Shown here: piece after piece, positions 33,318 to 55,418 of the stretch | Layout: each line of letters begins with the position of its first letter | How positions within the stretch are numbered: position 1 is the first letter of the stretch | Assembly (NCBI GenBank): GCA_965262145.1 | Contig: OZ253501.1 | Location: 4,260,946 to 4,324,945 of the forward strand | Reading direction: 5' to 3' | Length of the DNA stretch: 64,000 nt | Origin: Candidatus Latescibacterota bacterium | GTDB taxonomy: Bacteria; Latescibacterota; UBA2968 | Notes under the pieces: generated by a model | The model's input: only the letters and a program-made list of their open reading frames with translations | Told to the model about the DNA's origin: nothing | Database searches by the model: none | Translations under genes and position numbers: made by a program

Positions 33318-33416
33318 TCCTTCCTCTTAGGAGATTGCACAGTTGACAAAATCTAAGTGAGAATTACATTATGGGGCCGGAAACCCAGTAAACAACAGCT
33401 AACCACAGGAGCAACC

Positions 33417-34088
33417 ATGGACGGCATTCACGACATGGGCGGAATGCACGGATTTGGTCCCATTGTCCGCGAAGAAAACGAACCTTTATTTCACCACTCC
33501 TGGGAGAGCCGGGTACTCGCCATATCCGTAGCCACGCCTGTACCGATCCCCGGAGGCTCCCGCAACAATATCGAAAACATGGACCCCGCGCACTACCTCT
33601 CGTCCAGCTATTACGAAAAATGGCTGTACTCCCGTATCAAAGGACTGATTGACGCTGGCGTCCTAACCCCGGAAGAGATGGAAACGCGGATGGCACTATT
33701 CAAGAACACCCCCAATGCCAAAACCCCGGAACATCCCGATCCCGATGCCGTCAGAGCGGAACTCGTGCGATCTCGCCCTGCCAATCCACCCCAACAGAAA
33801 ATGGATATCCAGCCGCAATTTTCCAATGGCGACCACGTAAAAGCACGCAATATCCATCCCGAAGGCCACACCCGGCTCCCCCGATACATACGGGGCAAAT
33901 ACGGCACAATCACCAATTACTACGGCATCTACAATCTCCAGGACGCCGAACTGCCCAAAGGGTGTGCAAATCGCCAGCAACCCTTATACGCCGTGCGCTT
34001 TGAAGCCTCGGAACTATGGGGTAACGCCGCCGAAACAAAAAGTGCCGTCTATCTGGACATGTGGGAAAGCTATCTGGAATCGGCTTAA
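33417..34088 (+). CDS. Nitrile hydratase beta subunit
   Basis: 'MDGIHDMGGMHGFGPI' and the C-terminal 'RYIRGKYGTITNYYGIY...LYAVRFEASELWG' match canonical NHase beta. An RBS 'aggag' lies 7 nt upstream. Confidence 0.85.
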   Translation: MDGIHDMGGMHGFGPIVREENEPLFHHSWESRVLAISVATPVPIPGGSRNNIENMDPAHYLSSSYYEKWLYSRIKGLIDAGVLTPEEMETRMALFKNTPNAKTPEHPDPDAVRAELVRSRPANPPQQKMDIQPQFSNGDHVKARNIHPEGHTRLPRYIRGKYGTITNYYGIYNLQDAELPKGCANRQQPLYAVRFEASELWGNAAETKSAVYLDMWESYLESA

Positions 34089-34248
34089 CCATCCCCAATC
34101 GGAAAAAGGAAGTAATTATTTAGGTTTTTGTGGTCGCGTAGGAGGGAAATCCTTTTCCCGACCTTGATCGCGGCAGGGATGCCGCTCCTACAGCATCCTT
34201 TCCCTCATCTTTCAGATGACCTAACCTAATAAAAAAGGGATACCTCTC

Positions 34249-34842
34249 ATGAACACAGTTGCCCAAACCGACACTGCCCTGCGCACCAGAGCGCTCGAAT
34301 CACTCCTGATCGAAAAGGGTTTGCTTACAACAGAGATTATAGACGAAATCGTAGAAAAATATGAAAAAGACGTAGGCCCACTCAACGGTGCCAAAGTGGT
34401 TGCCCGCGCCTGGACTGACCCGGACTATAAGCGACGGCTAATAGAAGATGGCAGAGCGGCTATTGCCGAACTGGGTTTTGACAGCGCGCACGGTGCCAAA
34501 ATCGTCGTACTTGAAAACACATCAAGCGTCCACTATGTCGTCGTCTGCACCCTTTGCTCCTGTTATCCCTGGTCCGTACTCGGCTTGCCCCCGAACTGGT
34601 ATAAATCCTATGCGTACCGCTCTCGAGTCGTGCGGGAGCCAAGAGCCGTCTTGCGAGAATTTGATCTCGATCTATCCGACTCCGTAGAAATCCGCGTCTG
34701 GGACAGCAACTCGGACCTCCGCTACATGGTCCTGCCCGAACGTCCTCCCGGCACAAAAGACTACACCGAAGAACAGCTTGTCCCACTTGTCACGCGCGAC
34801 TCGATGATCGGCGTGGCCATGATCGAATCTCCTTCAAAGTGA
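34249..34842 (+). CDS. Nitrile hydratase alpha subunit, cobalt-type
   Basis: It has the metal-binding '[11 protein letters not shown]' motif, where Thr indicates the Co type. It is 197 aa. Confidence 0.9.
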
Positions 34843-35675: not shown

Positions 35676-36128
35676 ATGCCCCGTGTTGTACTTGATGTAA
35701 ATGTTTTAGTGAGCAGTTTGATTAATCCCCGAGGTTCTACAGGTCAAATACAGGTCGCGTGGCGGCGAGATGAAATTAGTGTGATTACTTCAAAGGCTAT
35801 TATAACCAAAACTGAGGAAGTTTTACGTCGTCCTCATATTTTTGCGTTGTTTCCTATAGCTCGGGCAGAGGCGCGTATTCAGGGACTGCTCGCATTACTT
35901 CAAAACCAGACAATTCTAACTCCTCACTCCCTCAACCTGATGGTCATAGAAGATGATCCCGAGGATGATACCATTATCATAGCAGCAGTTGAAGGCAACG
36001 CGGATTGTATTGTTTCTGGTGATCGTCATCTTAGGAATTTGAAATCATATCGGGGTATTCCAATTCTATCACCTGCTGAATTTTTGGCACAGTATAAGAT
36101 CGAAAGCCCAAACATCCACGATAGCTAA
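35676..36128 (+). CDS. PIN-domain toxin (TIGR00305-type putative TA toxin)
   Basis: 'MPRVVLDVNVLVSSLINPRG' is the typical family start. It has conserved acidic residues (D7, E, D near 'SGDRHL'). Confidence 0.7.
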   Translation: MPRVVLDVNVLVSSLINPRGSTGQIQVAWRRDEISVITSKAIITKTEEVLRRPHIFALFPIARAEARIQGLLALLQNQTILTPHSLNLMVIEDDPEDDTIIIAAVEGNADCIVSGDRHLRNLKSYRGIPILSPAEFLAQYKIESPNIHDS

Positions 36129-36134
36129 ACACAA

Positions 36135-36243
36135 GAGCAACCATGGACGGCATTCACGACGGTCACGACCATCATCACGATCACTAAAAATCTACAACAA
36201 CAAAATAAAAAGGGTTACGTCGTGGTGACGTAACCCTTTTTTT
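36135..36243. repeat. Right copy of the direct repeat, with a chimeric 14-codon mini-ORF (36143-36187, MDGIHDGHDHHHDH) and a second terminator hairpin
   Basis: It starts with 26 nt identical to the nthB start region (33409-33434). It then continues with a diverged copy of the accessory-gene end. The hairpin gggttacgtc/gacgtaaccc is followed by a T-run. Confidence 0.7.
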
Positions 36244-37778: not shown

Positions 37779-38987
37779 ATGGGCAGACTAAAAAGCCAGT
37801 TTCTATTTTATAGTCAACACAGTATTGGCGTCGGACATTATATGAGAATACGCCAAATATTAAAGGCGTTGGCAGGTGAAACAGTTCATTTTATTAATGG
37901 TGGCGCTGAGGTGGAGGCACTTGAGGATATTGCAGATGTAACGGTTACTCATTTACCTACGGTAAGATTTGATCCGCAAACAGGTGCTCTCAATGCCGAT
38001 GAAGATGAATTGAAAGTGCTGCTGAAGAAACGTGCTGAATTGGTAAGACAGACGTTTGAGCAGGTTCAGCCCAGTGTTATGGTTATTGAATTTTTTCCCT
38101 TTGGGCGCTGGAATTTAAGGTCTGAATTGCTTCCGATTTTAGAGACGACCAAATTATCAATACCTCGTAGGACACGGTTGGTTTGTTCGCTTCGGGATGT
38201 GCCTCAAGAGTCTTTTAAAGAAAGTTATGAAATGCGGTGCTGTGCCGTTTTAAATACATACTTTGATCATCTCCTCATACACTCTGATCCTGAATTTTTT
38301 CATCTGAAGGACAGTTTTCCATCTTGGAAAAAAATAAAAATCAGTACGCATTACACGGGATATGTTTCTATGAAGTATAAGAGTGGGGTATCAGACGAGG
38401 TGGATTGTGCAATAAGACCAGAAGATAAAATCATCCTCGTCACAGCAGGCAGTGGGGCTGATGCTTATGGCACATTTGATTATTTGAAGGCTTGCATACA
38501 AGCAAAGGTACTTCTTGGTCAGCATATAAAAGTAAAGATGTTGATTTATACCGGTTGTTTTTTTAGTGACGATAGATATGCCAAACTCAAAGCATTCTGT
38601 CAAGATCAAGATATTATCCTTAAAAGATTTACCTCTCAGATTTTATACTGGATGAAACGAGCGGAACTTTCTATCAGTCGAGGTGGCTATAATACATGCA
38701 TGAACATTCTTGAAACTGGGGTGCGTTCTGTGACTGTCCCTGTAGGATTGTCCAATGATCAGAATAATCGGGCAAAAAAAATGGCTGCTCTCAATCTGAC
38801 ACACAAACTCGATGAGGCAGATTTGACGCCTGAAAATCTCTGTAATACGATGCTTCAGGCATTAAAATCCCCCCCCGCAAAACATCAAATACGTCTCGAT
38901 GGTGCGTACCACACAGCCGAACTTTTAAAGAATCTGAAGCTTTATAGTAACCAAAATGCACACTGCCAAATGAAAGCCACAGCATGA
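37779..38987 (+). CDS. Glycosyltransferase, COG4671/GT28-C-like
   Basis: 'FYSQHSIGVGHYMRIRQILKAL' matches the predicted-glycosyltransferase family start. It is 402 aa. Confidence 0.6.
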   Translation: MGRLKSQFLFYSQHSIGVGHYMRIRQILKALAGETVHFINGGAEVEALEDIADVTVTHLPTVRFDPQTGALNADEDELKVLLKKRAELVRQTFEQVQPSVMVIEFFPFGRWNLRSELLPILETTKLSIPRRTRLVCSLRDVPQESFKESYEMRCCAVLNTYFDHLLIHSDPEFFHLKDSFPSWKKIKISTHYTGYVSMKYKSGVSDEVDCAIRPEDKIILVTAGSGADAYGTFDYLKACIQAKVLLGQHIKVKMLIYTGCFFSDDRYAKLKAFCQDQDIILKRFTSQILYWMKRAELSISRGGYNTCMNILETGVRSVTVPVGLSNDQNNRAKKMAALNLTHKLDEADLTPENLCNTMLQALKSPPAKHQIRLDGAYHTAELLKNLKLYSNQNAHCQMKATA

Positions 38988-40207
38988 ACGTGTGTCTCAT
39001 TACATTTCAATATCCACCCATGATTCGCGGTGGTGTGGGAAGTGCGACCCATAGAATTGCAAAAAATCTGGCAACCGTTGGAGTTTCTGTTCATGTAATT
39101 GCTCCCGGTCCTCATTCTTTGGGAACAATAATAGAACCAAATTTTGAATCGGGTTGTGTCGTACACAGGACATATCCCGCGCTGGGATCTTATAGCACTA
39201 ACAACCCAGATCAGTTAAAGGCCGTAGGAGATTATATTGCAAGCCTCCATGAGGAAATAGAATTCGATTTGTTTCACGGGATGTTCCTGATTCCTTCAGG
39301 TCTTGTCGCTACTATCGTCGCACGAGAGGTTGGGAGACCACTCATCATAAGTATTCGCGGTAATGATGTGGAAGTTTTGCGGTATAGTTTGATACATGGC
39401 GGCTCTGTAAAGTGGGTTTTAGAGTCCGCTGATCTTGTGACTTCGGTTACTCCCGATTTGTTAGACAAGGCAAAGAGTATTGCATCTATTTCTCAGGGCC
39501 AACCCATCGTCAATGCTTTTGATACGTCTCTGTTTCCAGAGGGGAGATTAACCGATTTAGCAAAAGAATTGCCCTGGAAATTGAGCTTGTTTGCCAAACG
39601 TTTTCTAAAGGCAAAGTCTCGGGGCAGTCCAGTGATCGGGACAACGGGCTTGATGCGCTACAAAAAAGGATTTCATCTGCTGCTTCAGGCATTTCGTGAA
39701 TTTTTGGATCAGCATCCCAAGGCTTTATTATTGCTGGTAGGTGACTTTTTAGGGGTAAGTCAGAGAAAGCAAATGTTGAAAATGATTAAATCTTTGGGTA
39801 TCAAACGCCAGGTGTTTATTACTGGACCAGCACCGCATTCTCATGTGCCCATGTGGATGCGCGAGATAGATATCTTTGCATTTCCATCTCTTTATGAAGG
39901 TTCGCCAAATGCGTTGATTGAGGCAATGGGCCTTGGTCTGCCAATTGTCGCTTCGGATATCTGTGGCGTGAACGATGTAATATCCGACGGTATAAATGGT
40001 TTGCTCGTTGAACCCAATTCGGTTGATGCACTGTTAAATAAACTGCTGTTTTTGAGTGAAGATAAGGCACTACAGACACAGTTAAGTGAATCTGCTAAGA
40101 AGACAATCGAAACCCAATTTTCTCCAATTGATGAAGTGGAAACCTGGCTGGATATGTACCTCTCGGTTTGTAGAACACGTTTTTCAAACACGCAAACCAC
40201 TGAATAA
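38984..40207 (+). CDS. Glycosyltransferase family 4 (GT4, group 1)
   Basis: 'ITFQYPPMIRGGVGSATHRIAKNLATVGVSVHVIAP' is a GT4 N-terminal domain. The C-terminus has the 'EGSPNALIEAMGLGLPIVASD' E-x7-E region. It overlaps the preceding GT gene by 4 nt. Confidence 0.85.
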   Translation: MNVCLITFQYPPMIRGGVGSATHRIAKNLATVGVSVHVIAPGPHSLGTIIEPNFESGCVVHRTYPALGSYSTNNPDQLKAVGDYIASLHEEIEFDLFHGMFLIPSGLVATIVAREVGRPLIISIRGNDVEVLRYSLIHGGSVKWVLESADLVTSVTPDLLDKAKSIASISQGQPIVNAFDTSLFPEGRLTDLAKELPWKLSLFAKRFLKAKSRGSPVIGTTGLMRYKKGFHLLLQAFREFLDQHPKALLLLVGDFLGVSQRKQMLKMIKSLGIKRQVFITGPAPHSHVPMWMREIDIFAFPSLYEGSPNALIEAMGLGLPIVASDICGVNDVISDGINGLLVEPNSVDALLNKLLFLSEDKALQTQLSESAKKTIETQFSPIDEVETWLDMYLSVCRTRFSNTQTTE

Positions 40208-40244
40208 AAATGTCGGTTGTGAATCTTTTGGTGTTGAACTGGAA

Positions 40245-40344
40245 TGAGGGAATTCTTCAGAAGGGGCGGTTCCATTATCTATGCATAGCATCAAAAAGAA
40301 GAACACCCTTTTCCGGTTTTATTTTTTTGAAAGGAGGTGATATT
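40245..40344 (+). promoter_or_regulatory. Conserved 5' leader/promoter region of the small Cys-rich protein gene (copy A)
   Basis: About 95% identical to 50143-50238. It contains the perfect palindrome CTATGCATAG and the SD GAAAGGAGGTGATATT ahead of the ATG. Confidence 0.6.
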
Positions 40345-40698
40345 ATGACTAAAAGACGGAAAATTCTGACGTTTTGTGCCGCTCAGGTTTCAATGATTGC
40401 TCTCGCTCTTGGATTTGGCGGCAATCAGCAAGCCCAGGGTCCTTATGCCAAACTGTTTAATCAGGCTTTTGGTGTGAAGAATGCAGAGGCTTTTTACCAT
40501 TATGAAGCTTGTGGAGAAGTGTGTGTCTGGGAGGACCCGAATCATTCGTTCTGTTCTGATGCCCTAGCCGTATCAAGCGACTGGTGTGGAATAGAATTCG
40601 GACCTGCCGGACCTGAGTGTAGTGATGGTTACAGTGAAGACTGTGACCCAGCCCTCAATGAAACGCCTGGAGGAGAAGAAGAAGATGACGAGTCTTAA
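40345..40698 (+). CDS. Small secreted 6-Cys acidic protein, paralog A (117 aa)
   Basis: It starts at MTKRRKIL behind a strong SD. It has a signal-peptide-like N-terminus, six Cys in the mature part and an acidic tail EEEDDES. The N-terminal 48 aa are about 90% identical to paralog B. Confidence 0.6.
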   Translation: MTKRRKILTFCAAQVSMIALALGFGGNQQAQGPYAKLFNQAFGVKNAEAFYHYEACGEVCVWEDPNHSFCSDALAVSSDWCGIEFGPAGPECSDGYSEDCDPALNETPGGEEEDDES

Positions 40699-40822
40699 GA
40701 TATCGTCTTCAAAGCGTTTTTAACTCGCCCCTTGATATTATACCGTCTAATGGGGTGAAAAAACTCTCCACTCCATTAGCTAACTCTGCCTATCAGAATC
40801 GTATCATCCAAAGGAATGCACT

Positions 40823-43177
40823 ATGAAAAAGCAATTCATAATTCGCATGGGATTGATTATGCTGACGTGCTTCTTTGGTACTAGTGTGTCCAAAGGTGAA
40901 ACAACAACAGATGCACTGTTTCAGGCCGCCGTGGAACAAGTTGGAAAGGTGACGAGTGAGGAAAGCATCAAAGCGTTTGAGGAGATCATTTCTCAAGACA
41001 GAGATTACGCACCTACGTACAACGAATTAGCGAAATTGCATCTGCTGGATTACAGCGTGAATGGCAGGCAACGTGCCGCACAGATGATTCACAAAGCGAT
41101 TGTGATTGATCCTGACAACCCTGAATATCAACTGACGCGAGGAAAAATCTGGTGGGCACAGGGCTTTCGCTTTCGGGCGTTAACCCAATACGAAAACGTG
41201 AACGAAAAACATTCGGACAATACGGAAGCCCTCAATAGTGCGGGTATGTATTGGGTATATGATTTCCTGGCACAAACTGATAGAAGAAGTCAACATCATT
41301 CAAAAGATTTCAAGCTATTTGCCCAGGAAGCCAAACGAGAAGCAGAACAAACTCTGCGAAAAAGCATTCAGTTGGATGCGACCAATCAGAAACCTTATTA
41401 TTTGCTGGGCATACTCTACTTTGAAGATGAGGATTGGAGCACCTTTCAAGCCTTGATGCAAGACCTCCACGCACAATATCCAGATGACAAAAATGCATTG
41501 TTATTTTCTGGCCTTGCTCACTATCAGCTTGGTGAATACAATAAATCGCATGAATACTATCAACGCGCTTATGACTTGATGAGTCTTGAAGAACGCGAGT
41601 TGCTCGAATCTATTGATCTGCTTATGCCAGAAAAAGATCATGCATCCCGCGATACAACGCAGACAATTGATGAATTATTAGAACGCGAGATGTTTTGGAA
41701 GAGCCAGGATCCGCTCTATTTATCTGATTTCAATGAAAGGAAAATGGAACACTTTGGCCGCATGGCATACTCGAATTTGCGGTTCAGGCGATTTTCTGAT
41801 AATGTCGAGGGTTGGCAGACAGATATGGGAAAGACCTATATCAAATTCGGAAGATATAGACGTAGAATGTTAATGTACAAATTCGCAGAAGGAATGACAG
41901 AGTTCTGGTATTACGAAAAATTCCAGTTCAAATTTTGTGGCAGTGGTGCTGATCGTTGGGGTTTTTGTGGTGGTTCATGGTATGGTATTACTCAGCGCCG
42001 GTCAGGGGTAAGTGCCTTCGAAGAATACCGAGAAGGGATTGATTTTGCGATGAGACGAACCAATTTTGCCCTTCTGCTAAGTACACTTAAAGAAGCCTCG
42101 CATCATATATTTAAAAAAACAGCACAGCGGTTTGTAGATCCGTATTTGAAACGAAAATACACCCTTCCCTATCAAATCGCGGCCTTTGAAGAACAAGACA
42201 GCGTGCGGATTGAACTCAGTTATATGATTCCAAAAGACCGATTAGAAGCCAATCCCGAAACTGATGAAGTGAGCTTTTGGGATGGTGTGTTCTTATTCGA
42301 TGAGCACTGGAATGATGTGTATAACTATCGCAAATCTGTGAGCTTCGCACTACCACCTCCCATGCCAGCCGAAAACGCAGCCGCGCAGCATCGTAACGAT
42401 CACCTGCTGGTCTCGCGCATGTTGTCTGTGCCGCAAGGCAACTATCATTTTTCGGTGGAATTACTGGATCAGACATCCGGCGCAATTGGTATCGTCCGCA
42501 ATGAGGAGCAGTACGTATATGATGATGAGAGCTTTCACCTGAGTGATCTTTTGGTTGGAAGCAATATTCAAGCGCGGAATGCGTTGCCAGAAGGCCGCAA
42601 CGACCTGATCATCACCCCCAATCCTGTCCGTACATTTTCACAGTCTGAACCGGTCTTTATCTATCTGGAACTGTATGATCTCCAACGCGACGATTTTGGC
42701 AGCACGAAGTATGAGATCTCCTACACCATTGGCAAGCCAGAGGTAGGTACGCTTTCACCCACATTATTTGCGTCTCAAAATGTGATTGAAATGATGGGCA
42801 AAACAGAGATTGATCTACGTAGTGGCATAGCAGATCACATAGCCGCCGAGGGCTTGCCGGGCGGGCGGTCACAGGATAGTGATGAGATCAGCATATTTGC
42901 CGACAGCGATATATGGGGCGAGACGAAGGTTTATACCAGTGGCGGGCAGGTCCAGCACATCGCTGCTGAGGGCTTGAAAATCAAGCGATCAAAAGATGGT
43001 GATTTGACGCGAACCGTGACAGCCAATTACGAAGGTAATCGAGAAGATGATTTCACGTATTTGCAGATCGATGTGAACCAGGTGCCTGAAGGGATTTATC
43101 AATTGACGATATTGGCGAGGGACAAGCGGACTGAGCAGACGGATAGGAAATACGTTTATTTTCGCATTATTAATTAA
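40823..43177 (+). CDS. TPR plus GWxTD-domain protein, paralog A (784 aa)
   Basis: It has a signal peptide and N-terminal TPR-like repeats. The motif 'VEGWQTDMGKTYIKFGRY' matches GWxTD. It is about 75-80% identical to 50755-53169. Confidence 0.75.
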   Translation: MKKQFIIRMGLIMLTCFFGTSVSKGETTTDALFQAAVEQVGKVTSEESIKAFEEIISQDRDYAPTYNELAKLHLLDYSVNGRQRAAQMIHKAIVIDPDNPEYQLTRGKIWWAQGFRFRALTQYENVNEKHSDNTEALNSAGMYWVYDFLAQTDRRSQHHSKDFKLFAQEAKREAEQTLRKSIQLDATNQKPYYLLGILYFEDEDWSTFQALMQDLHAQYPDDKNALLFSGLAHYQLGEYNKSHEYYQRAYDLMSLEERELLESIDLLMPEKDHASRDTTQTIDELLEREMFWKSQDPLYLSDFNERKMEHFGRMAYSNLRFRRFSDNVEGWQTDMGKTYIKFGRYRRRMLMYKFAEGMTEFWYYEKFQFKFCGSGADRWGFCGGSWYGITQRRSGVSAFEEYREGIDFAMRRTNFALLLSTLKEASHHIFKKTAQRFVDPYLKRKYTLPYQIAAFEEQDSVRIELSYMIPKDRLEANPETDEVSFWDGVFLFDEHWNDVYNYRKSVSFALPPPMPAENAAAQHRNDHLLVSRMLSVPQGNYHFSVELLDQTSGAIGIVRNEEQYVYDDESFHLSDLLVGSNIQARNALPEGRNDLIITPNPVRTFSQSEPVFIYLELYDLQRDDFGSTKYEISYTIGKPEVGTLSPTLFASQNVIEMMGKTEIDLRSGIADHIAAEGLPGGRSQDSDEISIFADSDIWGETKVYTSGGQVQHIAAEGLKIKRSKDGDLTRTVTANYEGNREDDFTYLQIDVNQVPEGIYQLTILARDKRTEQTDRKYVYFRIIN

Positions 43178-44569
43178 CAATACTTCGGACAGTTTTTATG
43201 ATCTAAAGGATTGACAAAAAAGTGCCGTTCACTCAGATTAGATGTCAAAGATATTCCAAATCACTGACAACCCAAACGAGTGAGACGGCACAATGGCAAT
43301 CGCAGAAAAGATACTCAATCGGCTCAACATTTCCAAGCCCCAAAAAAAGTTTCTCATGACCCTATTTACTACCATACTGATTGCACGGGGTAAAATCAAT
43401 TTTCGCAACCTGTCACGGTATTCTCACCTTTGCGAACGCACATACACCCGTCAGTTTGACAAGCCCTTTCGATTTATGGATTTCAACCGTGCCATCATCA
43501 ATGAAAGCAGAGACCAAGACCAAGCACATGGGCGTATTCTGGTCTTAGATGCCTCCTTTGTGCCCAAGTCAGGCAAAAAGACCTATGGCCTAGATCACTT
43601 TTGGAATGGCTGCCAGTCACGTCGAGAAAAAGGCTTAGAAATCTTGGGGGTTGCGCTTGTGGATGTGGATAAAAACACAGGCTTTACCCTATCGGTTTGT
43701 CAAACCGTACCCAAAACGGACACCGCGAAGGGGAAAAAAACCACTGCCACAAAGACGAATAAGAACGCCCAAACAGAGGATGAAACCCGAATAGACCAGT
43801 ATTTAGCGCACCTGCGAGAGGTCCACCCTTGCCTCGAAGCCGATGAAACATATCTCGCGGTGGATGGCTATTTTAGCAAGAAGAAATTCATTGATGGCGT
43901 CGCCAACCTCAAGCTACACCAAATCGGCAAACTGCGATGCGATGCCAACATGCGCTATCTTTACACAGGCCCCAAGCGTGAGAAAGGCAGTGGCAACCAA
44001 AAGACGTACGATGGAAAAGTCGACTGGCAAGACTTATCGCGCTTCACCTATCATCACACACAAGATGGGATCGCGCTTTACAGCTTGGTGCTGAATCATC
44101 AATGCTTCAAGCGCAATGTTAAAGTCGTCGTCCTGGTCAATGAGAAGATCAAAGAGACGAAAAAGAAAAATTATGCCCTCTTGTTTTCTACCGATAAGAA
44201 CTTGGATGCAAAAACAATCGTCACGTATTACAAAGCGCGATTCCAGATTGAATTTATTTTTCGAGATGCCAAACAGTTTACAGGCTTGTCTGACGCTCAG
44301 ACAAGAGATAAGAAACGCCTTGATTTCCATTTCAATGCATCTCTTTCAACCCTCAATTTAGCCAAAGTAGAGCACATAAAAGCCGATTGCGATACCCTGC
44401 CAAACCCTTTTTCTATGGCAAGCATTAAAGCCTGTTATTTCAACACATTTTTCCTCGAAAAGATTTTTTCAATGTTTGATCTCGACCTTAATTGCATAAA
44501 AAAATCGTCTCAATATCAATATCTACTCAATTATGGCAATATCGCCGCTTAAAACTGTCCGAACCATTG
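43178..44569 (+). mobile_element. IS4-family insertion sequence (~1.39 kb) with 19-bp terminal IRs CAAT(AC/GG)TTCGGACAGTTTT
   Basis: IRs lie at 43178-43196 and 44551-44569. It is flanked by AATTAA on both sides. It is inserted exactly at the stop codon of the GWxTD gene. Confidence 0.75.
43293..44552 (+). CDS. IS4-family DDE transposase
   Basis: The Y(2)R(3)E(6)K signature appears in 'YYKARFQIEFIFRDAK'. It is 419 aa. Confidence 0.85.
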   Translation: MAIAEKILNRLNISKPQKKFLMTLFTTILIARGKINFRNLSRYSHLCERTYTRQFDKPFRFMDFNRAIINESRDQDQAHGRILVLDASFVPKSGKKTYGLDHFWNGCQSRREKGLEILGVALVDVDKNTGFTLSVCQTVPKTDTAKGKKTTATKTNKNAQTEDETRIDQYLAHLREVHPCLEADETYLAVDGYFSKKKFIDGVANLKLHQIGKLRCDANMRYLYTGPKREKGSGNQKTYDGKVDWQDLSRFTYHHTQDGIALYSLVLNHQCFKRNVKVVVLVNEKIKETKKKNYALLFSTDKNLDAKTIVTYYKARFQIEFIFRDAKQFTGLSDAQTRDKKRLDFHFNASLSTLNLAKVEHIKADCDTLPNPFSMASIKACYFNTFFLEKIFSMFDLDLNCIKKSSQYQYLLNYGNIAA

Positions 44570-44658
44570 AATTAAGCGCCCATTCCTCAGTCAATGGACC
44601 GATCAAAGGTCACATATCTAAAGCTATGCTGTCTGTCATAAAAAGGTAGAGACTGAAC

Positions 44659-45561
44659 ATGGATAATAGGCAAGTTGTTTTTGTAATGGGAGCCGGTCAT
44701 TGCGGCTCAACGTTACTCGATTTGATATTGGGAAGTCATTCTGAATGTTTCTCTTTGGGCGAATTATTCGCACTTCCACGGTTTTTCGATCCTAAGAGTG
44801 ATAATTATAAGCATATATGTAGTGTATGTGATTCTGATTGTCAAATCTGGCATGATCAGTTCTCAATCAAAGGATTCGAGCACCATTTTTATAGACCAAA
44901 ATCAGGGCGGGGCTATCCAAATGCTAATTTTTTTGTTCATAATTTTTATGATTACCTGTCCGACTATACTGGCCGATCTGTTCTCATTGATTCTAGCAAA
45001 AATCCAAATTGGATACGGCACCAATGGAGATTGATACATCTCTCCTCTAAAATAAAACCGCGTGTGATTTATTTGTGGCGAGATGGTCGCGCTATTGTAA
45101 ACTCGTTTCTAAAAAAATATCCAGAGCGTGGGATGGCGAGGGTATCCAGACATTGGAAAAAGCGAACTCATACCATGAATGAACTTTTTGAGCGTCTCCC
45201 CTATCGTGCCAAAATGATGGTGCGGTATGAAAAATTAGCAGAATCGCCCGAGAAGACAATACGTAAAATTTGTGATTTTTTGCAATTAGATTTTGAGCCT
45301 GAGATACTACGCTACTGGCAGTTTGATCACCACCCCATAGCAGGTAATCTGGGTACGCGATCGCTTATTTTTAGATTCCAAAACAAATTTGATCAGGTTT
45401 TTGCAGATCATCGAAAAAAAATCAATAAAAGCAAGGCGTATTGGGATTATTATCGGCAAATTGGATTAGCCATTCAACCTGATTATCGCTGGAAGGAAGA
45501 ATTGACAGAGGCGCAACTTGCTGAATTCGATGCGATAGCTGGTGAAGAAAATAGAAATTAA
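44659..45561 (+). CDS. Sulfotransferase family protein (Stf0-like)
   Basis: It has an N-terminal P-loop-like PAPS-binding 'VVFVMGAGHCGSTLL' and a C-terminal 'RYEKLAESPEKTIRKICDFLQLDF' sulfotransferase block. Confidence 0.65.
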   Translation: MDNRQVVFVMGAGHCGSTLLDLILGSHSECFSLGELFALPRFFDPKSDNYKHICSVCDSDCQIWHDQFSIKGFEHHFYRPKSGRGYPNANFFVHNFYDYLSDYTGRSVLIDSSKNPNWIRHQWRLIHLSSKIKPRVIYLWRDGRAIVNSFLKKYPERGMARVSRHWKKRTHTMNELFERLPYRAKMMVRYEKLAESPEKTIRKICDFLQLDFEPEILRYWQFDHHPIAGNLGTRSLIFRFQNKFDQVFADHRKKINKSKAYWDYYRQIGLAIQPDYRWKEELTEAQLAEFDAIAGEENRN

Positions 45562-45591
45562 TCGACTGTCTTCACATGTGAGTAGATACAC

Positions 45592-47277
45592 ATGAACATC
45601 TTGTCAAACATAGAGTTTTTTAAAAGAAATTACGTTGCGGTAGAAATATTGAGTGTGCTCTTTGCCTTTTCCTTTGGACTATCTTACGGATTTGGCGACC
45701 AGGCGATTTATTTGCTACCCGGCATGCAGTTATACGATCCCACTTTTTTGGCGCGCGATTGGTATGTGTCCGAGGTTGTGCATTATCATGTCGTGTTTAA
45801 GTATCTCGTTTATCTGTTGATGTACCTGGGCGCGTTAGAGTGGTCAAGCTCGATTTTGAATCTGGGATTGATGGTTTGGGTAGGTTTCAGCATTTATCGC
45901 TTGCTTAGTGGGCTTTATCAACAAACACTGGTACCGTTTTTATTAACACTTGCTCTCCTGCATCTGATGGTTAATACCGATATTCTCACACATCGTTTTT
46001 TACCTAACTGGCTGATTCCTAATGGTATCGCGACAGTTTGCTTTTTGGGAGCACTTGCTGAGCTGGTTGATTTGGATAGACGACGAGAATTGCACCTGTT
46101 CTTAAGTGGCCTGTTTTTTGGCCTGAGTGTCGTAATTCACAGTGCGTTTCTGTTTTTTTTAGTGCCATTTTTTGTGGGAATTTCAATCTGTTTACGCCGA
46201 AGCTTTAATCGCAATGATGTTTTTATTTTTTTATTGCCTTTTTGTTTGCTGGCTTTGCTGAGTATGAAAATACATGCTCAGTTTATATTTTCCACAGTAG
46301 GCGAGATAGATCGTTTAGATGAGATAGCGCGATTACGTATTCCGCATCATTACTTACCCCAGAATTGGGGTCAGGAAATTGTGTTGCCTTTTTTTCTCCA
46401 TTTGGCTTTGGGGATATGCGGACTACTGCTGCATTGGCCCAAGGGACGCCAAGCTGTTCTTATCTTGTATTCAGCAGCTTTGATACTGATCGGTTTGATA
46501 TTTGTCTGTCTGACTACAGTTCTGATTTTTATTCCACAAATTGCTTTGCTTCAAGGTTATCGGTTCAGCGGGTTACTGTCCTTTTTGTGTTTTTTATTTT
46601 TTTCTGGCGGCATGGGACAAGTTTTGATTGATAGATGTTTTGATTCACGGCGTTTGATTCTTTTATGTATCAGTGTTGGATTGGTTTATCTATTGGATTT
46701 CTATTTTGCTATTGGACTCCTGTTATTTTTGAATGTATGCTTTATTCTCGACTTGATGAGCAGTTCTCAGGTGTATGAAAGGGTCTATAAGAGATTCGTT
46801 CTTGTGACATCGGTATGTTTTTTAGCTGTCTGTTTAAAAGGCAATTTCCCAATTTCTCGAGTCGAGCTTCTGCATCAAGATCAAAAGGCGCCTTTATATG
46901 AATGGGTTCGTACACATACAGACAAAGATGCACTATTTGTCGTGCCTGTAGATAGAGTGACACAATTCCGCCTGTTTGCACAACGGGCGATTTTGATCGA
47001 TTGGAAAGGATGTCCATATTTCCCGAGCGAATACGATGTCTGGCTTAAACGCCTGCAAGATGTTACCGCATCAACTGAACTCAGTGCCCGAAGGATGCGT
47101 GACCAGGGCTATCGAAAAATGGATGCTGCGCGTGCTAAATTCTTGTCAGATACATACAATGTCCAATATATCGTGATGTCGCTTGGAAAATCAAATAATA
47201 AGCTCTCTCTTCGGCCTTTTGATCTGGTCTATGCCAAAGATGGATATGCAGTTTATCGTCTGCAGAGTAAACTTTGA
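45592..47277 (+). CDS. Polytopic membrane protein with C-terminal soluble domain, possible GT-C-fold glycosyltransferase
   Basis: It has at least 12 predicted TM helices. An Asp-containing first loop 'FGDQAIY' follows TM1. The C-terminal ~170-aa hydrophilic domain follows the last TM. Confidence 0.5.
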   Translation: MNILSNIEFFKRNYVAVEILSVLFAFSFGLSYGFGDQAIYLLPGMQLYDPTFLARDWYVSEVVHYHVVFKYLVYLLMYLGALEWSSSILNLGLMVWVGFSIYRLLSGLYQQTLVPFLLTLALLHLMVNTDILTHRFLPNWLIPNGIATVCFLGALAELVDLDRRRELHLFLSGLFFGLSVVIHSAFLFFLVPFFVGISICLRRSFNRNDVFIFLLPFCLLALLSMKIHAQFIFSTVGEIDRLDEIARLRIPHHYLPQNWGQEIVLPFFLHLALGICGLLLHWPKGRQAVLILYSAALILIGLIFVCLTTVLIFIPQIALLQGYRFSGLLSFLCFLFFSGGMGQVLIDRCFDSRRLILLCISVGLVYLLDFYFAIGLLLFLNVCFILDLMSSSQVYERVYKRFVLVTSVCFLAVCLKGNFPISRVELLHQDQKAPLYEWVRTHTDKDALFVVPVDRVTQFRLFAQRAILIDWKGCPYFPSEYDVWLKRLQDVTASTELSARRMRDQGYRKMDAARAKFLSDTYNVQYIVMSLGKSNNKLSLRPFDLVYAKDGYAVYRLQSKL

Positions 47278-47332
47278 TATGGCTGTCCTTTATTTTTCTC
47301 TCCTATTAATGCTTTGTCGTCAGGATTGAGAT

Positions 47333-50122
47333 ATGAGAACACTAATCGGGATAATATGTCTATTTTTTATTGGGTGTAGATATTTTAATCCATCTATAGA
47401 TGTGGATTATACGGTCAAAGTGATTGATCCTGAAAATCAAATTTTTGAGATTGAAATGGCGATTCAAAACACGCCTACAGGCGATGTTATTTTGCAACAA
47501 CACGCTTATGCAGAATTTGTACCGATAAAAAAAATGGATGCTCTCCATGCCGATGGATCTCAAGTTGAGATTATTTCCCACAAAAGGAGAAAGAGTGGCA
47601 ATGGACCCCGCCTGACAGAAGTGCAGTATATTCTCAAGAATCCAAAGCAAGGCTCTGTTTTGTTGAGGTATCATATCCAAGTTGGAAAAGAAATATATGC
47701 CGAGCATGGGAGACAATCTTTTCATACCTATGGTTATATGAATGATCAATTTGCACTCATTTCGAGCCGCAATTTATTCCTACTGCCAGAGTTAAATATA
47801 AATCAAATAAGAGCAAAATTTGAGCTGCCTTCAGGATGGGTACTAGGCGAACAATGGATAAAAAAAGAAGGGTGGTTAGTCCCTTCAGCAGAATCCAAGT
47901 ATCTAAAAGAGGAATTTATTAATGCCAATTTTGTGATGGGGTTGCTCGACCATAAAAGCAGAAAAATTGGTGATACTGAGATCAGCGTTTTTGTCTTGCA
48001 AGAATGGAACCAGAATCGAAAAGAAAAATTATATGAAACAGCTTTTACTCTATACAAAGAAGCCGCCTCTATATTTAATGCAGAAGGTGGGGGGAAGTAC
48101 ATCTTTGGTTTTGTGCCCGAAACGAACGAAGGACTTGAGATTTTCACAACTGAAAATTCTTTTTCCCAGGGTTTAGCAATGAGTCCGCCAACTCCAGAAC
48201 GTTGGTTGTTATGTGCAGAGAGTCTTTTAAATCGCTGGTTGATTTATCCTACATTTCGCATGGAATACGAAGATAGAGATGATTTTTGGTTGCTTGATGG
48301 TATTCCGGCTTATTATGCGATCCGAGTATGCGATAAAATTGGGGTTTTGGATGGCGACGCATATTTAAGGGCAGAAAAAGACAAATTTGTCACGGGTATG
48401 GTGCAACGAAGCTTCAGGCGTCTTATCCACGCTTTAGCCAATGATTCAAGTGCCGTGACAGTTTATCATCCTTTGACTGATGTGCGTCATTTGCAGACTA
48501 AAGGGACGTATGCAGAGCATCGCAAACGGGTTGCGCCATATCTCGTTGCATTTATGGACGAGGAATTGAAACGGCAATCAAATAGCAAATACGATTTTAC
48601 TCACATTCTTCAGTATGAGTATGCAAAACGTAGAAATTTGAACTTGCAGGCAGACTTAACGCATGTGGTTGGTAAAGAAATTTCTAATTTAGTAATGAAT
48701 TATTTGCACAACGGAAAAAAAATCGTGCGAAGAATTAATGCCGTTGCAGACAGGCCGCCTTCTTTTCCTCAAAATAAACCGACAGGTATCACGCAGAGCC
48801 AAGGCGATACGCTTCAAATACTACTGACTTCTCATACACGCGGATTTCTGGAGCATTGTGGCTGCAAAGTCAATCAAAGTGGCGGTGTTGCTCGACGGGC
48901 AAAATATATCAAAGAATTACGGCATCAAAATCCAGACCTTTTGCTGATTGATGCAGGAAACTTTTTTTCCTGGGATAAACAGACTTTTCGCATCACGGAG
49001 TTTACAAATAGAGAATTAGATTTGTATTTATCTACAATGGATATGATGGATTACGATCTGGCTACGATATCCTATGCAGAGCTTTTCTATGGCGACAAAC
49101 TTTTGAAAGCAAAAGCCGAGAATATAAAATTTCCATTTGTCTGTGCAAACATAACCCAGGACGGTGTTCCAATTGCGAAGCCTTATGTTGTCTTGACGAG
49201 TGGTACATACAAGGTCGGGTTTTTGGGTCTTTTTCAACCCCCGATCCAACGCGGCGATAAACAGTTTCAAATTTACCAAAAACAGATCCAGAATTTAACG
49301 ATTTTAGATCCTATCGAGACCGCGCAACAATACCTACCTGATTTGAGCAAAAAATGTGACGTTGTTTTTATTGTTGGAAACCTGGACCCTATCCTAATTC
49401 GAGAGCAATTAATTAATATTCAAGGAATTGATGCTGTTATTTCTATTACCAGCAGTCAAGCTTTTGTCTATAAAAAAGATGAACAGTTCGTACACATTAA
49501 GCAAGATGAGTCTGGATTCCGTAATCGTATGCTTGTTATATATCCTTATCTTGAACTCTATGGCATCGAAGACTTGAAGATTGCTATCGATAAAAATAAT
49601 CAAATCATCGGCGGTAGGAGAACACCTGTTTTTTTAAGAGAAGAAATCGGAGAAGATTTTGAAGTCAAAAAAGAGATAGATGCTTTTTATACGAAAAATT
49701 TTGCTGAAGAATCAAAGATTGATCCTATAACGGAATGGAATCAGTATTTTGAACAAATAGATTTTGTCGGAAGTGCAACCTGCCAAACATGTCACCCTCA
49801 ACAATTTGCCCAATGGAAAACGACAAAACACGCGTTTGCGATGAATACATTGCTCGACAAAAAAAGACAATACCAGCCTAAATGTGTTATTTGTCATGTA
49901 ACCGGTGCAGGGTACGAAACAGGCTATAAAATGGGAGACCTACAGCATCCATTGATCAATGTTCAATGTGAGGCTTGCCATGGCCCGGGGAAACGTCACA
50001 GTCAAAATCCAACACAGCACCGTCTTATAAAAACGATACCTGAGCAACTTTGTACAACTTGCCACGACTCAGAGCACTCCGACTTTGATTTTGCCACTTA
50101 TTACCCTAAGGTTAAGCATTAG
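47333..50122 (+). CDS. Lipoprotein with metallophosphoesterase (5'-nucleotidase-like) domain fused to a C-terminal tetraheme cytochrome c
   Basis: It has the lipobox-like 'LFFIGC'. The central 'LLTSHTRGFLEHCGC...LLIDAGNFF' is calcineurin-like. Four CxxCH motifs are present (CQTCH, CVICH, CEACH, CTTCH). It is 929 aa. Confidence 0.7.
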   Translation: MRTLIGIICLFFIGCRYFNPSIDVDYTVKVIDPENQIFEIEMAIQNTPTGDVILQQHAYAEFVPIKKMDALHADGSQVEIISHKRRKSGNGPRLTEVQYILKNPKQGSVLLRYHIQVGKEIYAEHGRQSFHTYGYMNDQFALISSRNLFLLPELNINQIRAKFELPSGWVLGEQWIKKEGWLVPSAESKYLKEEFINANFVMGLLDHKSRKIGDTEISVFVLQEWNQNRKEKLYETAFTLYKEAASIFNAEGGGKYIFGFVPETNEGLEIFTTENSFSQGLAMSPPTPERWLLCAESLLNRWLIYPTFRMEYEDRDDFWLLDGIPAYYAIRVCDKIGVLDGDAYLRAEKDKFVTGMVQRSFRRLIHALANDSSAVTVYHPLTDVRHLQTKGTYAEHRKRVAPYLVAFMDEELKRQSNSKYDFTHILQYEYAKRRNLNLQADLTHVVGKEISNLVMNYLHNGKKIVRRINAVADRPPSFPQNKPTGITQSQGDTLQILLTSHTRGFLEHCGCKVNQSGGVARRAKYIKELRHQNPDLLLIDAGNFFSWDKQTFRITEFTNRELDLYLSTMDMMDYDLATISYAELFYGDKLLKAKAENIKFPFVCANITQDGVPIAKPYVVLTSGTYKVGFLGLFQPPIQRGDKQFQIYQKQIQNLTILDPIETAQQYLPDLSKKCDVVFIVGNLDPILIREQLINIQGIDAVISITSSQAFVYKKDEQFVHIKQDESGFRNRMLVIYPYLELYGIEDLKIAIDKNNQIIGGRRTPVFLREEIGEDFEVKKEIDAFYTKNFAEESKIDPITEWNQYFEQIDFVGSATCQTCHPQQFAQWKTTKHAFAMNTLLDKKRQYQPKCVICHVTGAGYETGYKMGDLQHPLINVQCEACHGPGKRHSQNPTQHRLIKTIPEQLCTTCHDSEHSDFDFATYYPKVKH

Positions 50123-50142
50123 AGAAATTCGAACTGAAATAA

Positions 50143-50238
50143 GCGGGTTCTTCAGAAGGGACGGTTCCATTATCTATGCATAGCATGAATATAGAAGAAC
50201 ACCCTTTTCCACTTTATTTTTTTGAAAGGAGGTGATAT
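50143..50238 (+). promoter_or_regulatory. Conserved 5' leader/promoter region (copy B) with CTATGCATAG palindrome
   Basis: About 95% identical to 40245-40344. It includes the SD GAAAGGAGGTGATATT. Confidence 0.6.
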
Positions 50239-50629
50239 TATGACCAAAAGACGGAAAATCCTGACATTTTGTGCTACTCAGGTTTCAATGATTGCCCTCG
50301 CTCTTGGTTTTGGCGGCAATCAACAAGCCCAAGGCCCTTATGCCAAACTGTTTAATAATGCTTTTGGTGTGAAGGATGCAGAAGCACAAGTGGCTTGGGA
50401 TGAAATACAGTGTGGGGTATGCATGGAGGAGGAATGGGTATATACGAACGAGAAGGGGGAAGAATTGAATGGGTATGCTTCTTGGTGTTCTGATGCCCAA
50501 GCGGAACCAGGTGACTGGTGTGAGTATGATGTAGTTACAGGGCATTGTACTGGTGGTGGCGGAGAAGAAGCATGCGGTTATGATGAGTACGGCGATGGTG
50601 GTGAGCATGATGATGACGACGAGTCGTAA
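50239..50629 (+). CDS. Small secreted 6-Cys acidic protein, paralog B (129 aa)
   Basis: It starts at MTKRRKIL behind the same SD. It has a conserved signal/leader, a divergent core with six Cys, and an acidic tail 'EHDDDDES'. Confidence 0.6.
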
Positions 50630-50754
50630 AGTGAACATCTCACAACTTTTTTAGCTGCTCCTTGATGTTATGCTATCTAATGGGAGGGGAAAAATTTTCC
50701 CTCCCATTAGCTCACTTCCGCCTGTCAGTGTCGTATAAGCAAAAGGAATGCGCT

Positions 50755-53169: not shown

Positions 53170-53322
53170 ACGATCAGTCCTCAGCCGATGGACCGGTCAA
53201 AGGTCACACAGCCTAAAGCTACGCTGTCTGTTATAAAACGGTCAGCATTCAGACGTACAGAGCAGCAACCGCTGATCCGGTTCAAATACTCCGACACAAA
53301 TGAACTCTGTGGTTGCTTTTCC

Positions 53323-54009: not shown

Positions 54010-54025
54010 ATGACTGGCATTCCAC

Positions 54026-54960: not shown

Positions 54961-55418
54961 CATCTCCTTTTGCTGAATACTGGGCTTATCGACAAACTGC
55001 TCGTCGAAATTGATCCAGCGTTCCACAGTCTCGGGATCGTACATCTCATCGTAAAGCTCGGGCACACAATAGGGAAAATGCGGTCCAAAAAAACTGCTAC
55101 AAATCATAAAGGGTTTATCGCCCTCACAAAATCCTTCAATCAGATCAATCGTCCTATCGGCAGTCCAGTGCTCCTGCATATACTCGGCAGGCAACTGCGA
55201 CCGACCGCAAAAAGGCGCGTCACCCCCCCATTCCACGCGCTGAACTTCCTGTGCATACCCCCAATCAAAACCCGCATCGCGCACACTCTGGTTCCAATCA
55301 CGCGCCGTATGCCATTAAATCCCAGGGCATCGTAGCGCTGCATATCGGTAAGCAAAAAAAGGATATTGGGTCTATCGCGTTCCGTGTTCATCGCATAAAC
55401 CTCCTGATCATTTGTCAA
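54916..55418 (-). pseudogene. Sulfatase gene fragment, N-terminal and middle parts, frameshifted and lacking the C-x-P-x-R segment
   Basis: 'RPNILFLLTDMQRYDALG' sits in one frame. The middle part 'FGPHFPY...' is in another frame. No CxPxR motif lies between them. Confidence 0.7.

Follow-up and report, generated by a model that had tools for sequence, protein, structure and literature searches.

Discrete polymorphism within a short operon segment, with types found across lineages, is known from the agrBDC groups of Staphylococcus and the comC pherotypes of Streptococcus. In Pseudomonas aeruginosa, the pilA allele groups carry group-specific accessory genes (tfpO and tfpW-Z) and are linked to glycosylation, and the heat-stable enterotoxin STa of Escherichia coli is built from a Sec signal, a conserved pro segment, and a mature part whose six Cys are oxidized in the periplasm. 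Here, we describe a duplicated two-gene cassette of a Candidatus Latescibacterota bacterium (GenBank assembly GCA_965262145.1, contig OZ253501.1), which is probably a sponge symbiont, judging only by sample names and the titles of metagenome-assembled genomes (MAGs). The cassette lies in a stretch of 64,000 nt (positions 4,260,946 to 4,324,945 of the contig; hereafter the window) and encodes a small Cys-rich protein, consisting of a conserved leader and a variable core, and a large protein with tetratricopeptide repeats (TPRs) and a GWxTD domain. An earlier reading of this stretch, made without database searches (the sequence-only reading), had compared the small protein with precursors of ribosomally synthesized and post-translationally modified peptides (RiPPs) and, equally, with diversifying ligands or effectors that have a cognate partner.

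The locus resembles agrBDC and comC in that a short segment of a conserved operon is discretely polymorphic, shared types implying recombination and balancing selection. Unlike these systems, it lacks a histidine kinase as well as a protein dedicated to processing or export, its adjacent protein does not co-vary, and its product would be a folded protein of about 9 kDa instead of a short peptide. With pilA it has in common a conserved N-terminus of about 50 residues, a divergent C-terminal domain (here presumably with disulfides), a small number of groups, a downstream accessory gene, and a link to glycosylation, but the downstream gene does not track the group and there is no class III prepilin signal. 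As this signal (G|F-T-L-I-E) is absent from 20 of the 20 sequences, a type IV pilin was rejected; moreover, no pilus assembly genes were seen in the scanned open reading frames (ORFs) of the window or in the right flank. These Pfam and NCBIfam scans cover the large ORFs at positions 1 to 50 kb of the window, the right flank being read from the precomputed Pfam annotation of the syntenic loci L001 and L002. L001-L026 denote related loci from metagenomes and MAG chromosomes, and W1 and W2 the two window copies. STa is likewise comparable in its Sec signal, to which the Sec-like N-terminus of the small protein would correspond, and in its conserved pro segment and six-Cys mature part, but its mature peptide is a hormone mimic of 18-19 residues that has no homology to the small protein and neither an acidic tail nor a discrete-type polymorphism as found here.

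In animals, the conotoxin superfamilies and the mussel peptides MgCRP-I (PMC4558851) combine highly conserved signal and pro parts with a mature domain that diverges except for its six Cys. The cassette has the same design, including six invariant Cys. However, those are eukaryotic families with many paralogs per genome, whose mature peptides are usually short and often basic, whereas the cassette is bacterial, occupies one or two loci, and encodes a very acidic domain of 60-80 residues that occurs in five exchanged types. No sequence homology to peptides of the conotoxin or MgCRP-I type emerged from the family searches. The large protein belongs with the GWxTD family (TIGR04514/PF20094), as both copies score above the TIGR04514 cutoff and carry N-terminal TPRs; the family itself is uncharacterized, and the proteins described here are multicopy, mosaic, and usually encoded behind genes for BlaI and a BlaR1-like thioredoxin protein.

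The small protein and its five core types

The small ORF is a real, constrained gene, because it is conserved in at least nine loci, its ribosome-binding site (RBS) is invariant in five aligned loci, and the ratio of nonsynonymous to synonymous substitutions per site (dN/dS) is low in leader and core; the sequence-only reading had made its proposal depend on such conservation. A longer ORF starting at position 40210 finds no support in copy 2. Throughout the family, the protein is 109-129 aa long and starts with MTK[RT]RK, hydrophobic residues 7-26, and NQQAQG, followed by an invariant 17-residue segment (PYAKLFN.AFGVK.AEA) and a core of 60-80 residues with exactly six Cys, 14-24 acidic versus 0-2 basic residues, and a terminal DES. 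The core of window copy 2 consists of 80 residues with six Cys, 24 Asp or Glu, and one Lys or Arg. The six core Cys that had been noticed in the window are thus present in all family members, although the C-x2-C spacing ascribed to both copies holds for copy 2 only, copy 1 having C-x3-C (CGEVC). The acidic C-terminus ending in DDES was seen correctly (EEEDDES in copy 1 and HDDDDES in copy 2), DES being common to the whole family.

Core typing and identity calculations were performed on 20 full-length sequences from one narrow clade. These fall into five discrete core types, named A, A', B, C, and D; the window carries type A in copy 1 and type B in copy 2. Within a type, leaders are 90% identical (minimum 76%) and cores 95.7% (minimum 91%); between types, leaders remain 87.7% identical and cores only 40%. 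One identical 49-aa leader is joined to a type A core in one case and to a type D core in another. The leader has a dN/dS of about 0.1-0.4 in most pairs (up to 0.88 for L009 versus L010, at low dS), and cores of the same type have a dN/dS of 0-0.16, so that the comparison suggested by the sequence-only reading finds constraint on both parts. For the type A cores of W1 and L021, for example, the ratio is about 0.12-0.16 depending on the core span (0.026/0.226 and 0.034/0.212). Comparisons of cores that differ in type give a dN of about 0.5 at a saturated dS. The within-type dN/dS of 0-0.16 led us to reject continuous positive selection on the core, and the greater within-type conservation of the core than of the leader fits a folded domain.

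Comparison with the genomic background points to the way in which the types have spread. Flanking operon genes differ between genomes by a dS of 0.08-0.40 and a dN of at most 0.06, and the leader dS (0.10-0.55) overlaps this range. The type D cores of L009, L022, and L023, however, differ by a dS of only 0.03-0.09 (dN 0-0.007), whereas the leaders beside them have a dS of 0.19-0.32 and the flanking genes for the GT4 glycosyltransferase (GT) and the sulfotransferase one of 0.20-0.25. In L022 and L009, the near-identical block starts at nt +143, which is the leader/core junction, and extends through the hairpin region behind the small gene. The type D core dS, lying below that of leader and flanks, indicates that core cassettes have been exchanged between lineages with a breakpoint at the leader/core junction. 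As conserved types recur in diverged backgrounds, the core is a set of old, internally conserved alleles moved by recombination and not an intrinsically fast-evolving or unconstrained segment. The hypervariable core of the sequence-only reading is hence strongly polymorphic, but its continuous hypervariation gives way to five discrete types. No leader diverges more than that of type B (dS 0.38-0.55 to other leaders), and the second unit of the window would therefore be old or derived from a more distant lineage. As a side observation, L020 (6588-9001 of a long-read contig of 2x coverage) has about 1.8 kb of extra DNA between the GT4 and GWxTD genes, with a degenerate leader-like piece, the 3' end of a partial second A' core, and a leader-truncated A' gene, which could be a tandem rearrangement or a read error.

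Both the small and the GWxTD proteins have signal-peptide-like N-termini. According to its hydropathy profile, the small protein starts with a basic n-region, a hydrophobic stretch of about 18-20 residues, and a polar c-region and thus looks like a substrate of the general secretory (Sec) pathway with a signal peptide or a signal anchor. The best c-region site is AQG followed by Pro (AQG|P), with GFG|G as an alternative, and the signal-peptidase site is uncertain because of the Pro at +1 of AQG. Twin-arginine translocation (Tat) was rejected as an export route because the twin arginine is not conserved, residue 4 being Arg in some members and Thr in many others (KRRK versus KTRK).

The small-protein family is tiny and lineage-restricted. 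Among 15 billion proteins, 22 sequences in five clusters at 90% identity were found, all in ENA or Logan metagenomes, and the known members come from Latescibacterota-type metagenomes. Neither the small proteins nor the cores alone matched Pfam, NCBIfam, or PADLOC down to E <= 10. A filter-free profile hidden Markov model search of 1.84 billion representatives returned the small-protein family and, in addition, only two repeat proteins that were judged spurious, as they match the 17-residue segment through summed repeats. P0127, a repeat protein of 2101 aa, has a repeat unit (GTYSKHFTNAVGCDSTATL) with a loose similarity to the small protein's invariant segment GPYAKLFNNAFGVKDAEA, with a summed E-value of 2e-4 over seven repeats, which is probably due to chance. 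Furthermore, two DNA patterns of the leader had no match among metagenome contigs of the Joint Genome Institute (JGI).

Organization of the two cassettes

Each cassette is a unit of about 3 kb that consists of a conserved upstream region, the small gene (117 or 129 aa), a hairpin, and the TPR-GWxTD gene (784 or 804 aa, where a length of 800 aa had been given for the protein that was otherwise recognized correctly). The two copies described in the sequence-only reading are indeed both on the plus strand and about 10 kb apart, with start-to-start distances of 9895-9992 nt in the ORF list and the repeat finder. The coordinates of all features are collected in Table 1.

Table 1. Features of the cassettes and the surrounding operon (window coordinates)
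Feature	Position	Strand	Remarks
Glyco_tran_28_C-type GT	37779-38987	+	Pfam assignment; head of operon
GT4 glycosyltransferase	38984-40207	+	Pfam assignment; head of operon
Cassette 1 unit	40236-43177	+	about 3 kb
Upstream region, cassette 1	40236-40344	+	non-coding; presumed promoter and 5' untranslated region; RBS AGGAGG at 40332-40337
Small gene 1	40345-40698	+	117 aa; ATG at 40345 after AGGAGG (40332-37)
Leader of small gene 1, codons 1-49	40345-40491	+	MTKRRK, hydrophobic 7-26, NQQAQG, PYAKLFN.AFGVK.AEA
Core of small gene 1, type A	40492-40698	+	68 residues, six Cys, 19 D+E, 0 K+R, ends EEEDDES
(GT)4 run in type A core	40519-40526	+	frameshifted by a 2-nt deletion in sister strain L024
Stem-loop 1	40747-40779	+	between small gene and GWxTD gene; no U-tract; -14.6 kcal/mol, z = -4.9
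TPR-GWxTD 1	40823-43177	+	784 aa; TPR ~45-260, GWxTD domain ~264-365, C372/C382 pair
GWxTD1 hypervariable loop	41963-42082	+	residues ~381-420; indel-rich, after conserved FCG...W.FCGG; equivalent in copy 2
IS701/IS4-like element	43178-44569	+	transposase 43293-44552; 19-bp imperfect inverted repeats
3' intergenic tail of copy 1	44570-44658	+	displaced by the insertion sequence; 78% identical to 53170-53258
Sulfotransferase (Sulfotransfer_3)	44659-45561	+	Pfam assignment
Polytopic membrane protein, C-terminal DUF6798	45592-47277	+	561 aa; Pfam matches DUF6798 only
929-aa protein	47333-50122	+	metallophosphoesterase/5'-nucleotidase-like middle, C-terminal cytochrome c554-type multihaem domain
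Cassette 2 unit	50131-53169	+	about 3 kb
Upstream region, cassette 2	50131-50239	+	conserved
Small gene 2	50240-50629	+	129 aa; leader differs from copy 1 at 3/49 residues
Stem-loop 2	50677-50710	+	between small gene and GWxTD gene; no U-tract; -24.3 kcal/mol, z = -5.7
TPR-GWxTD 2	50755-53169	+	804 aa from the ATG aligned to the copy 1 start

Along the duplicated unit, identity between the copies differs by segment. It is 44% in the 100 nt preceding the unit and 80.7% in the 109 nt of the upstream region, which is therefore conserved but not near-identical as had been stated. In leader codons 1-49, it reaches 89.8% at the nucleotide level (46 of 49 aa), in good agreement with the roughly 90% conservation first noted for about 48 residues, and in the core it falls to 53.6% of aligned positions with 66 gap columns (Fisher p = 1.3e-13 for leader versus core). 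A 30-nt identity plot of the global alignment places the drop exactly at 40484-40491, so that the abrupt switch from leader to core is confirmed. Identity rises again to 72% in the intergenic region between the small gene and the GWxTD gene, 80.7% in the GWxTD genes, and 78% in the approximately 90 nt past the GWxTD stop codon.

The upstream region of cassette 1 is kept in the orthologous loci L007, L009, and L010. A second cassette is present only in the closest relatives of the window (L001-L006), which carry orthologs of small gene 2 with at least 99% identity; L007 and L009 have a single cassette. The stem-loop was found in five of the five loci examined, with folding energies of -24 to -28 kcal/mol (z = -4.3 to -6.6) in W2, L007, L009, and L010, and compensatory changes in 3 of 15 pairs. 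Between 40100 and 40900, neither a sigma-70 promoter nor an intrinsic terminator was found, no Rfam family matched between 37 and 54 kb at E <= 1, and no further silent core copies were found within the window.

The TPR-GWxTD protein

The two GWxTD proteins are 77% identical (dS 0.80, dN 0.13) and match TIGR04514 with 53.1 and 53.7 bits (cutoff 28), while scoring 19-21 bits for PF20094, which is below the cutoff of 26.9. TPR_11, TPR_19, and TPR_17 are above their cutoffs, and the profile matches solved TPR proteins with E-values down to 2e-14; a PDB sequence search with the GWxTD profile found TPR matches only and no solved structure beyond the TPR part. Past the Cys pair of the first protein, a hypervariable loop (residues ~381-420) is followed by a C-terminal half predicted to be beta-rich. 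Literature searches returned no papers on GWxTD or DUF6798 and nothing relevant on M56 proteins of the BlaR1-thioredoxin type.

In genome collections, the relatives of the large protein come from MAG chromosomes of Candidatus Latescibacterota. The family is multicopy, with more than 266 matches and at least four copies on one chromosome; among the 120 best matches, identity is nowhere below 69%. It is also mosaic, as segments are common to operon copies and to copies in gene arrays: one of the array copies has an overall identity of 86% to W1, the loops of L010 and the array copy P0011 agree at 94%, and codons 541-660 of the second window gene are nearly identical to the gene in L009 (proportion of synonymous differences 0.02-0.10). 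Loop variants are common to paralogs in different genomes and genomic contexts. Most paralogs lack a small gene upstream, and no small secreted partner was found upstream of them; instead, they follow genes for BlaI and a BlaR1-like thioredoxin protein, often in tandem arrays. In the arrays of L013, L017, L018, and L019, BlaI (Penicillinase_R) precedes a BlaR1-like protein of 1330-1460 aa with Peptidase_M56 and CarboxypepD_reg domains and a CGPC thioredoxin, which in turn precedes the GWxTD protein, forming an undescribed three-gene module in Latescibacterota. Binding of the acidic tail by the TPRs was rejected as a family-wide feature, as the BlaR1-like neighbors in these arrays do not have an acidic tail end.

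The surrounding operon and its decay in related strains

The cassette is embedded in an operon with the order Glyco_tran_28_C-type GT, GT4, small gene, TPR-GWxTD, sulfotransferase, DUF6798 membrane protein, and 929-aa protein, and this synteny is kept in every locus long enough to show it. GT genes lie upstream of the small gene in L001, L002, L007, L008, L010, and L022 and are fragmented in L023-L026. The 929-aa protein additionally has a weakly Peptidase_M61_N-like N-terminus and reaches 222 bits for the 'UshA-like (seleno)protein' family NF041198 (cutoff 275). In the window, the IS701/IS4-like insertion sequence (IS) is inserted at TTAATTAA directly past the first GWxTD stop codon, so that cassette 1 is cut off from the sulfotransferase gene and the operon genes behind it. 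The element does not belong to the cassette and is absent from the otherwise syntenic L001, L002, and L024; in L002, the displaced 3' tail is directly joined to the GWxTD stop codon.

Operon decay was observed in two lineages. The sister strain L024 is represented by a 5.68-Mb contig with 97-99.6% DNA identity to the window. In the region corresponding to 39605-50635, the type A small gene has lost 2 nt of its (GT)4 run and with them its reading frame (a form found on 13 contigs), the GT4 gene is interrupted by an IS, and a deletion associated with an IS3-type element has removed the DUF6798 gene, the gene for the 929-aa protein, and all of the type B small gene, including the region upstream of it. 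The genes for both GWxTD proteins, the GT28-type enzyme, and the sulfotransferase are intact. A second, independently degraded operon is that of L023 (ERZ27298220 contig), where GT4 was called as a 118-aa fragment only, a frameshift affects the C-terminal tail of the type D small gene (P0138), and the GWxTD gene is overlapped at its 3' end by a transposase ORF called on the other strand. The joint decay in L024, which spared the GWxTD genes, suggests that the small proteins may be functionally tied more to the glyco-operon than to GWxTD.

Some further features of the window lie outside the operon. A sulfatase gene on the minus strand (53323-55284) is split by an IS (DDE_Tnp_1/DUF4096 transposase, 54053-54853) into the fragments 53323-54009 and 54916-55284; L001 lacks the IS at this position, yet also has two overlapping sulfatase ORFs. 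Positions 33357-34842 hold genuine genes for the beta and alpha subunits of nitrile hydratase, not RiPP precursors of the nitrile hydratase leader peptide (NHLP) type. A 43-nt direct repeat, 91% identical between 33392-33434 and 36118-36160, contains ATGGACGGCATTCACGAC and would encode MDGIHD; one copy falls within the initial 80 nt of the beta-subunit ORF of nitrile hydratase. The other, which overlaps the end of the PIN-domain gene and continues slightly beyond it, may be the remnant of a duplicated gene start. Toxin-antitoxin-like genes are present at 35676-36128 (PIN) and 16403-18204 (AAA_21 with DUF4276).

Proposed role and alternative explanations

We propose that the small, acidic protein is exported and stabilized by disulfides, has a type-specific surface under balancing selection, and acts together with the glycan/sulfation operon, a tentative reading that we consider possible though somewhat short of probable. 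The cassette is a self-contained unit made up of the upstream region with its strong RBS, the small gene, the stable hairpin, and the TPR-GWxTD gene. Its small protein would be a Sec-exported pre-protein consisting of a signal peptide or anchor (residue 1 to about 26-32), the invariant 17-residue segment, and an acidic domain of 60-80 residues, in which the six invariant Cys probably form three disulfides and which ends in the invariant acidic tail with its terminal DES. Each core type is kept by purifying selection, and homologous recombination would move core cassettes of about 200-300 nt between lineages, with the conserved leader on one side and the conserved 3' end and intergenic region on the other serving as recombination arms. 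In the window genome, type A would then occupy the ancestral site, whereas type B would belong to an additional copy of the unit that is older or was acquired laterally.

The exported domain may act at an interface where a differing type gives an advantage, which would imply that phage, host recognition, or neighboring cells exert balancing or frequency-dependent selection. It could act with the operon of GTs, sulfotransferase, and membrane protein as a carrier, as a substrate, or as part of an envelope or matrix product that they make together. Instead of being a type-specific receptor, the TPR-GWxTD protein would serve all types as a handler or anchor by touching what is invariant in them (the acidic tail or the 17-residue segment), and the hairpin may let the small protein exceed the large one in amount and thereby set the stoichiometry.

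Several points weigh against this proposal. Balancing selection is read from a pattern, namely, five types in about 20 sequences of a narrow clade, instead of from a population sample, and the core dS between types is unreliable, as these cores can barely be aligned. The N-terminus of the small protein could be an uncleaved anchor. The AlphaFold2 model of the small protein is too poor to be used (pLDDT 40, alignment of six sequences), and that of the GWxTD protein (pLDDT 45 from 122 sequences, all at least 69% identical) gives secondary structure only, so that neither is good enough for a fold search. As to the operon, the GT4, the GT28-type enzyme, and the sulfotransferase would be cytoplasmic on the assumption that they have no signal peptides, and modifying a Sec substrate directly would take a route with lipid-linked intermediates via the DUF6798 protein. 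For the latter, neither an NCBIfam match nor a sequence relative in the PDB was found, and its identification as a GT-C enzyme in the sequence-only reading is only putative. The co-decay that seems to link the small genes with the glyco-operon concerns two lineages only.

Closest to the proposal is the explanation that the small protein is the core protein of a glycosylated or sulfated product, i.e., a proteoglycan-like or glycoprotein surface component modified by the GTs, the sulfotransferase, and the DUF6798 protein, which we regard as unlikely but worth weighing. The small gene lies inside the operon in every locus that shows its neighbors, the sulfotransferase belongs to Sulfotransfer_3, and small genes, GT4, and DUF6798 were lost or broken together in L024 and partly in L023; a modification by neighboring genes, as suggested in the sequence-only reading, is plausible in this respect. 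However, no acceptor motif is common to the types, since some of them lack Tyr with acidic neighbors and some lack Ser-Gly, and a product linked to lipid or polysaccharide would suit the operon just as well. The presumed cytoplasmic location of the enzymes, set against a small protein that looks Sec-exported, and the only putative GT-C identity of the DUF6798 protein speak against this explanation as well.

In a related and rather unlikely version, the locus would be a bacterial counterpart, by analogy, of the animal secreted peptides in which the pre-pro region is conserved while the six-Cys domain varies. A small acidic protein with a disulfide knot, to which its own operon might add glycans or sulfate, would be recognized in a type-specific manner by host, phage, or neighbors, and its core would be a mobile allelic cassette of 200-300 nt, with few types under frequency-dependent selection that can be stacked, as with A and B in the window.

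A cognate ligand-receptor or effector-immunity pair, in which the core is recognized by the variable parts of its own GWxTD protein and both co-diversify like agrD and agrC, appears quite unlikely. Such a pair might be expected from the adjacency of the two genes, which were duplicated as one unit and are probably on one transcript, from the divergence between genomes, which in both genes exceeds that of the flanks (GWxTD dS 0.54-0.83 versus 0.08-0.40), and from the variable first TPR block and the hypervariable loop of the GWxTD protein. The two type A' loci L010 and L020 are, moreover, 90-100% identical over GWxTD residues 1-430. Yet the GWxTD variants do not co-vary with the core type, because the three GWxTD proteins behind type D cores differ in their variable regions (77-89% identity in TPR block 1 and 52-88% in the loop), and one of them resembles the partner of a type C core (87%) more than it does one of the other two. 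Recombination of the core cassette is independent of GWxTD, whose segments are shared with paralogs that mostly follow BlaI and BlaR1-like genes without a small gene, and both GWxTD genes remain intact in the sister strain that has lost both small genes. Of the diversifying ligand with a cognate partner envisaged in the sequence-only reading, the discrete polymorphism of the core thus stands, whereas the cognate role of the GWxTD protein is not supported.

That the locus is nothing more than a segmental duplication of two genes, with a poorly constrained, low-complexity acidic tail drifting at the C-terminus of the small protein, is distinctly improbable and already disfavored. The core is rich in Asp, Glu, and Gly and its structure prediction is of very low confidence, the family is tiny and lineage-restricted, and the operon is decaying in some strains, all of which would suit mere drift. 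The six Cys positions and the terminal DES are invariant, however, cores within a type are more conserved than the leader, and the types are discrete instead of forming a continuum, with the same type nearly unchanged in diverged backgrounds.

We consider it very improbable that the product is a periplasmic metal-binding or redox protein whose six Cys and acidic residues bind a metal or cofactor and which acts with the multihaem cytochrome/nucleotidase-like protein. The invariant Cys framework includes CxxC or CxxxC, the c554-type multihaem protein is encoded in the same operon, and the paralogous GWxTD genes follow those of BlaR1-like proteins with a CGPC thioredoxin site. Against this, the first two Cys are not evenly spaced among types (CxxC in type B and CxxxC elsewhere), no ferredoxin, HiPIP, metallothionein, or copper-protein match was obtained at E <= 10, the nonconserved twin arginine makes Tat export of a folded cofactor protein unlikely, and a discrete surface polymorphism would be unusual for an electron carrier.

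A RiPP precursor, in which the conserved leader would guide maturases that act on a hypervariable Cys-rich core before cleavage and export, is hardly credible despite the conserved N-terminal and variable Cys-rich C-terminal segments, a hairpin past the small gene as in many precursor genes, and nearby GTs and a sulfotransferase that can be tailoring enzymes, since the N-terminus is basic, hydrophobic, and signal-like without a leader context of the double-glycine type, the protein is 109-129 aa long, the core is more conserved than the leader within a type, and no gene for a radical-SAM, YcaO, LanB/C/M, or cyclodehydratase enzyme, a RiPP recognition element, an ATP-binding cassette (ABC) exporter with a C39 peptidase, or any other maturase, leader peptidase, or exporter was found in the scanned window ORFs or the right flank. 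The comparison with RiPP precursors made in the sequence-only reading is thus not supported. L007 has a radical-SAM gene 8 kb upstream, behind unrelated genes, which is not in the window. Two further candidates were rejected: a RiPP of the glycocin type or of the sulfated RaxX type, as the GTs are GT4 and Glyco_tran_28_C enzymes and, next to the Sulfotransfer_3 enzyme, both a C39-ABC exporter and a conserved acceptor motif are missing, and a polymorphic toxin/immunity system, as the core has no toxin-domain match and the downstream gene encodes a presumably exported TPR protein of 800 aa from a multicopy family.

Implications

For genome mining, it matters that a signal of conserved leader and hypervariable core in two copies can reflect discrete alleles, which mimic the pattern of a RiPP or of an arms race. 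If the proposed role of the small protein as a polymorphic exported domain is true, the cassette would represent a compact polymorphic recognition locus in an uncultured symbiont phylum, with five alleles, clear recombination arms, natural knock-outs in sister strains, and a connection to glycan and sulfation genes. Sponge metagenomes could then be typed at this locus, and the types could be tested against host species, host individual, and phage load. It would also provide the first biological context for the GWxTD family, DUF6798, and the BlaR1-thioredoxin arrays.

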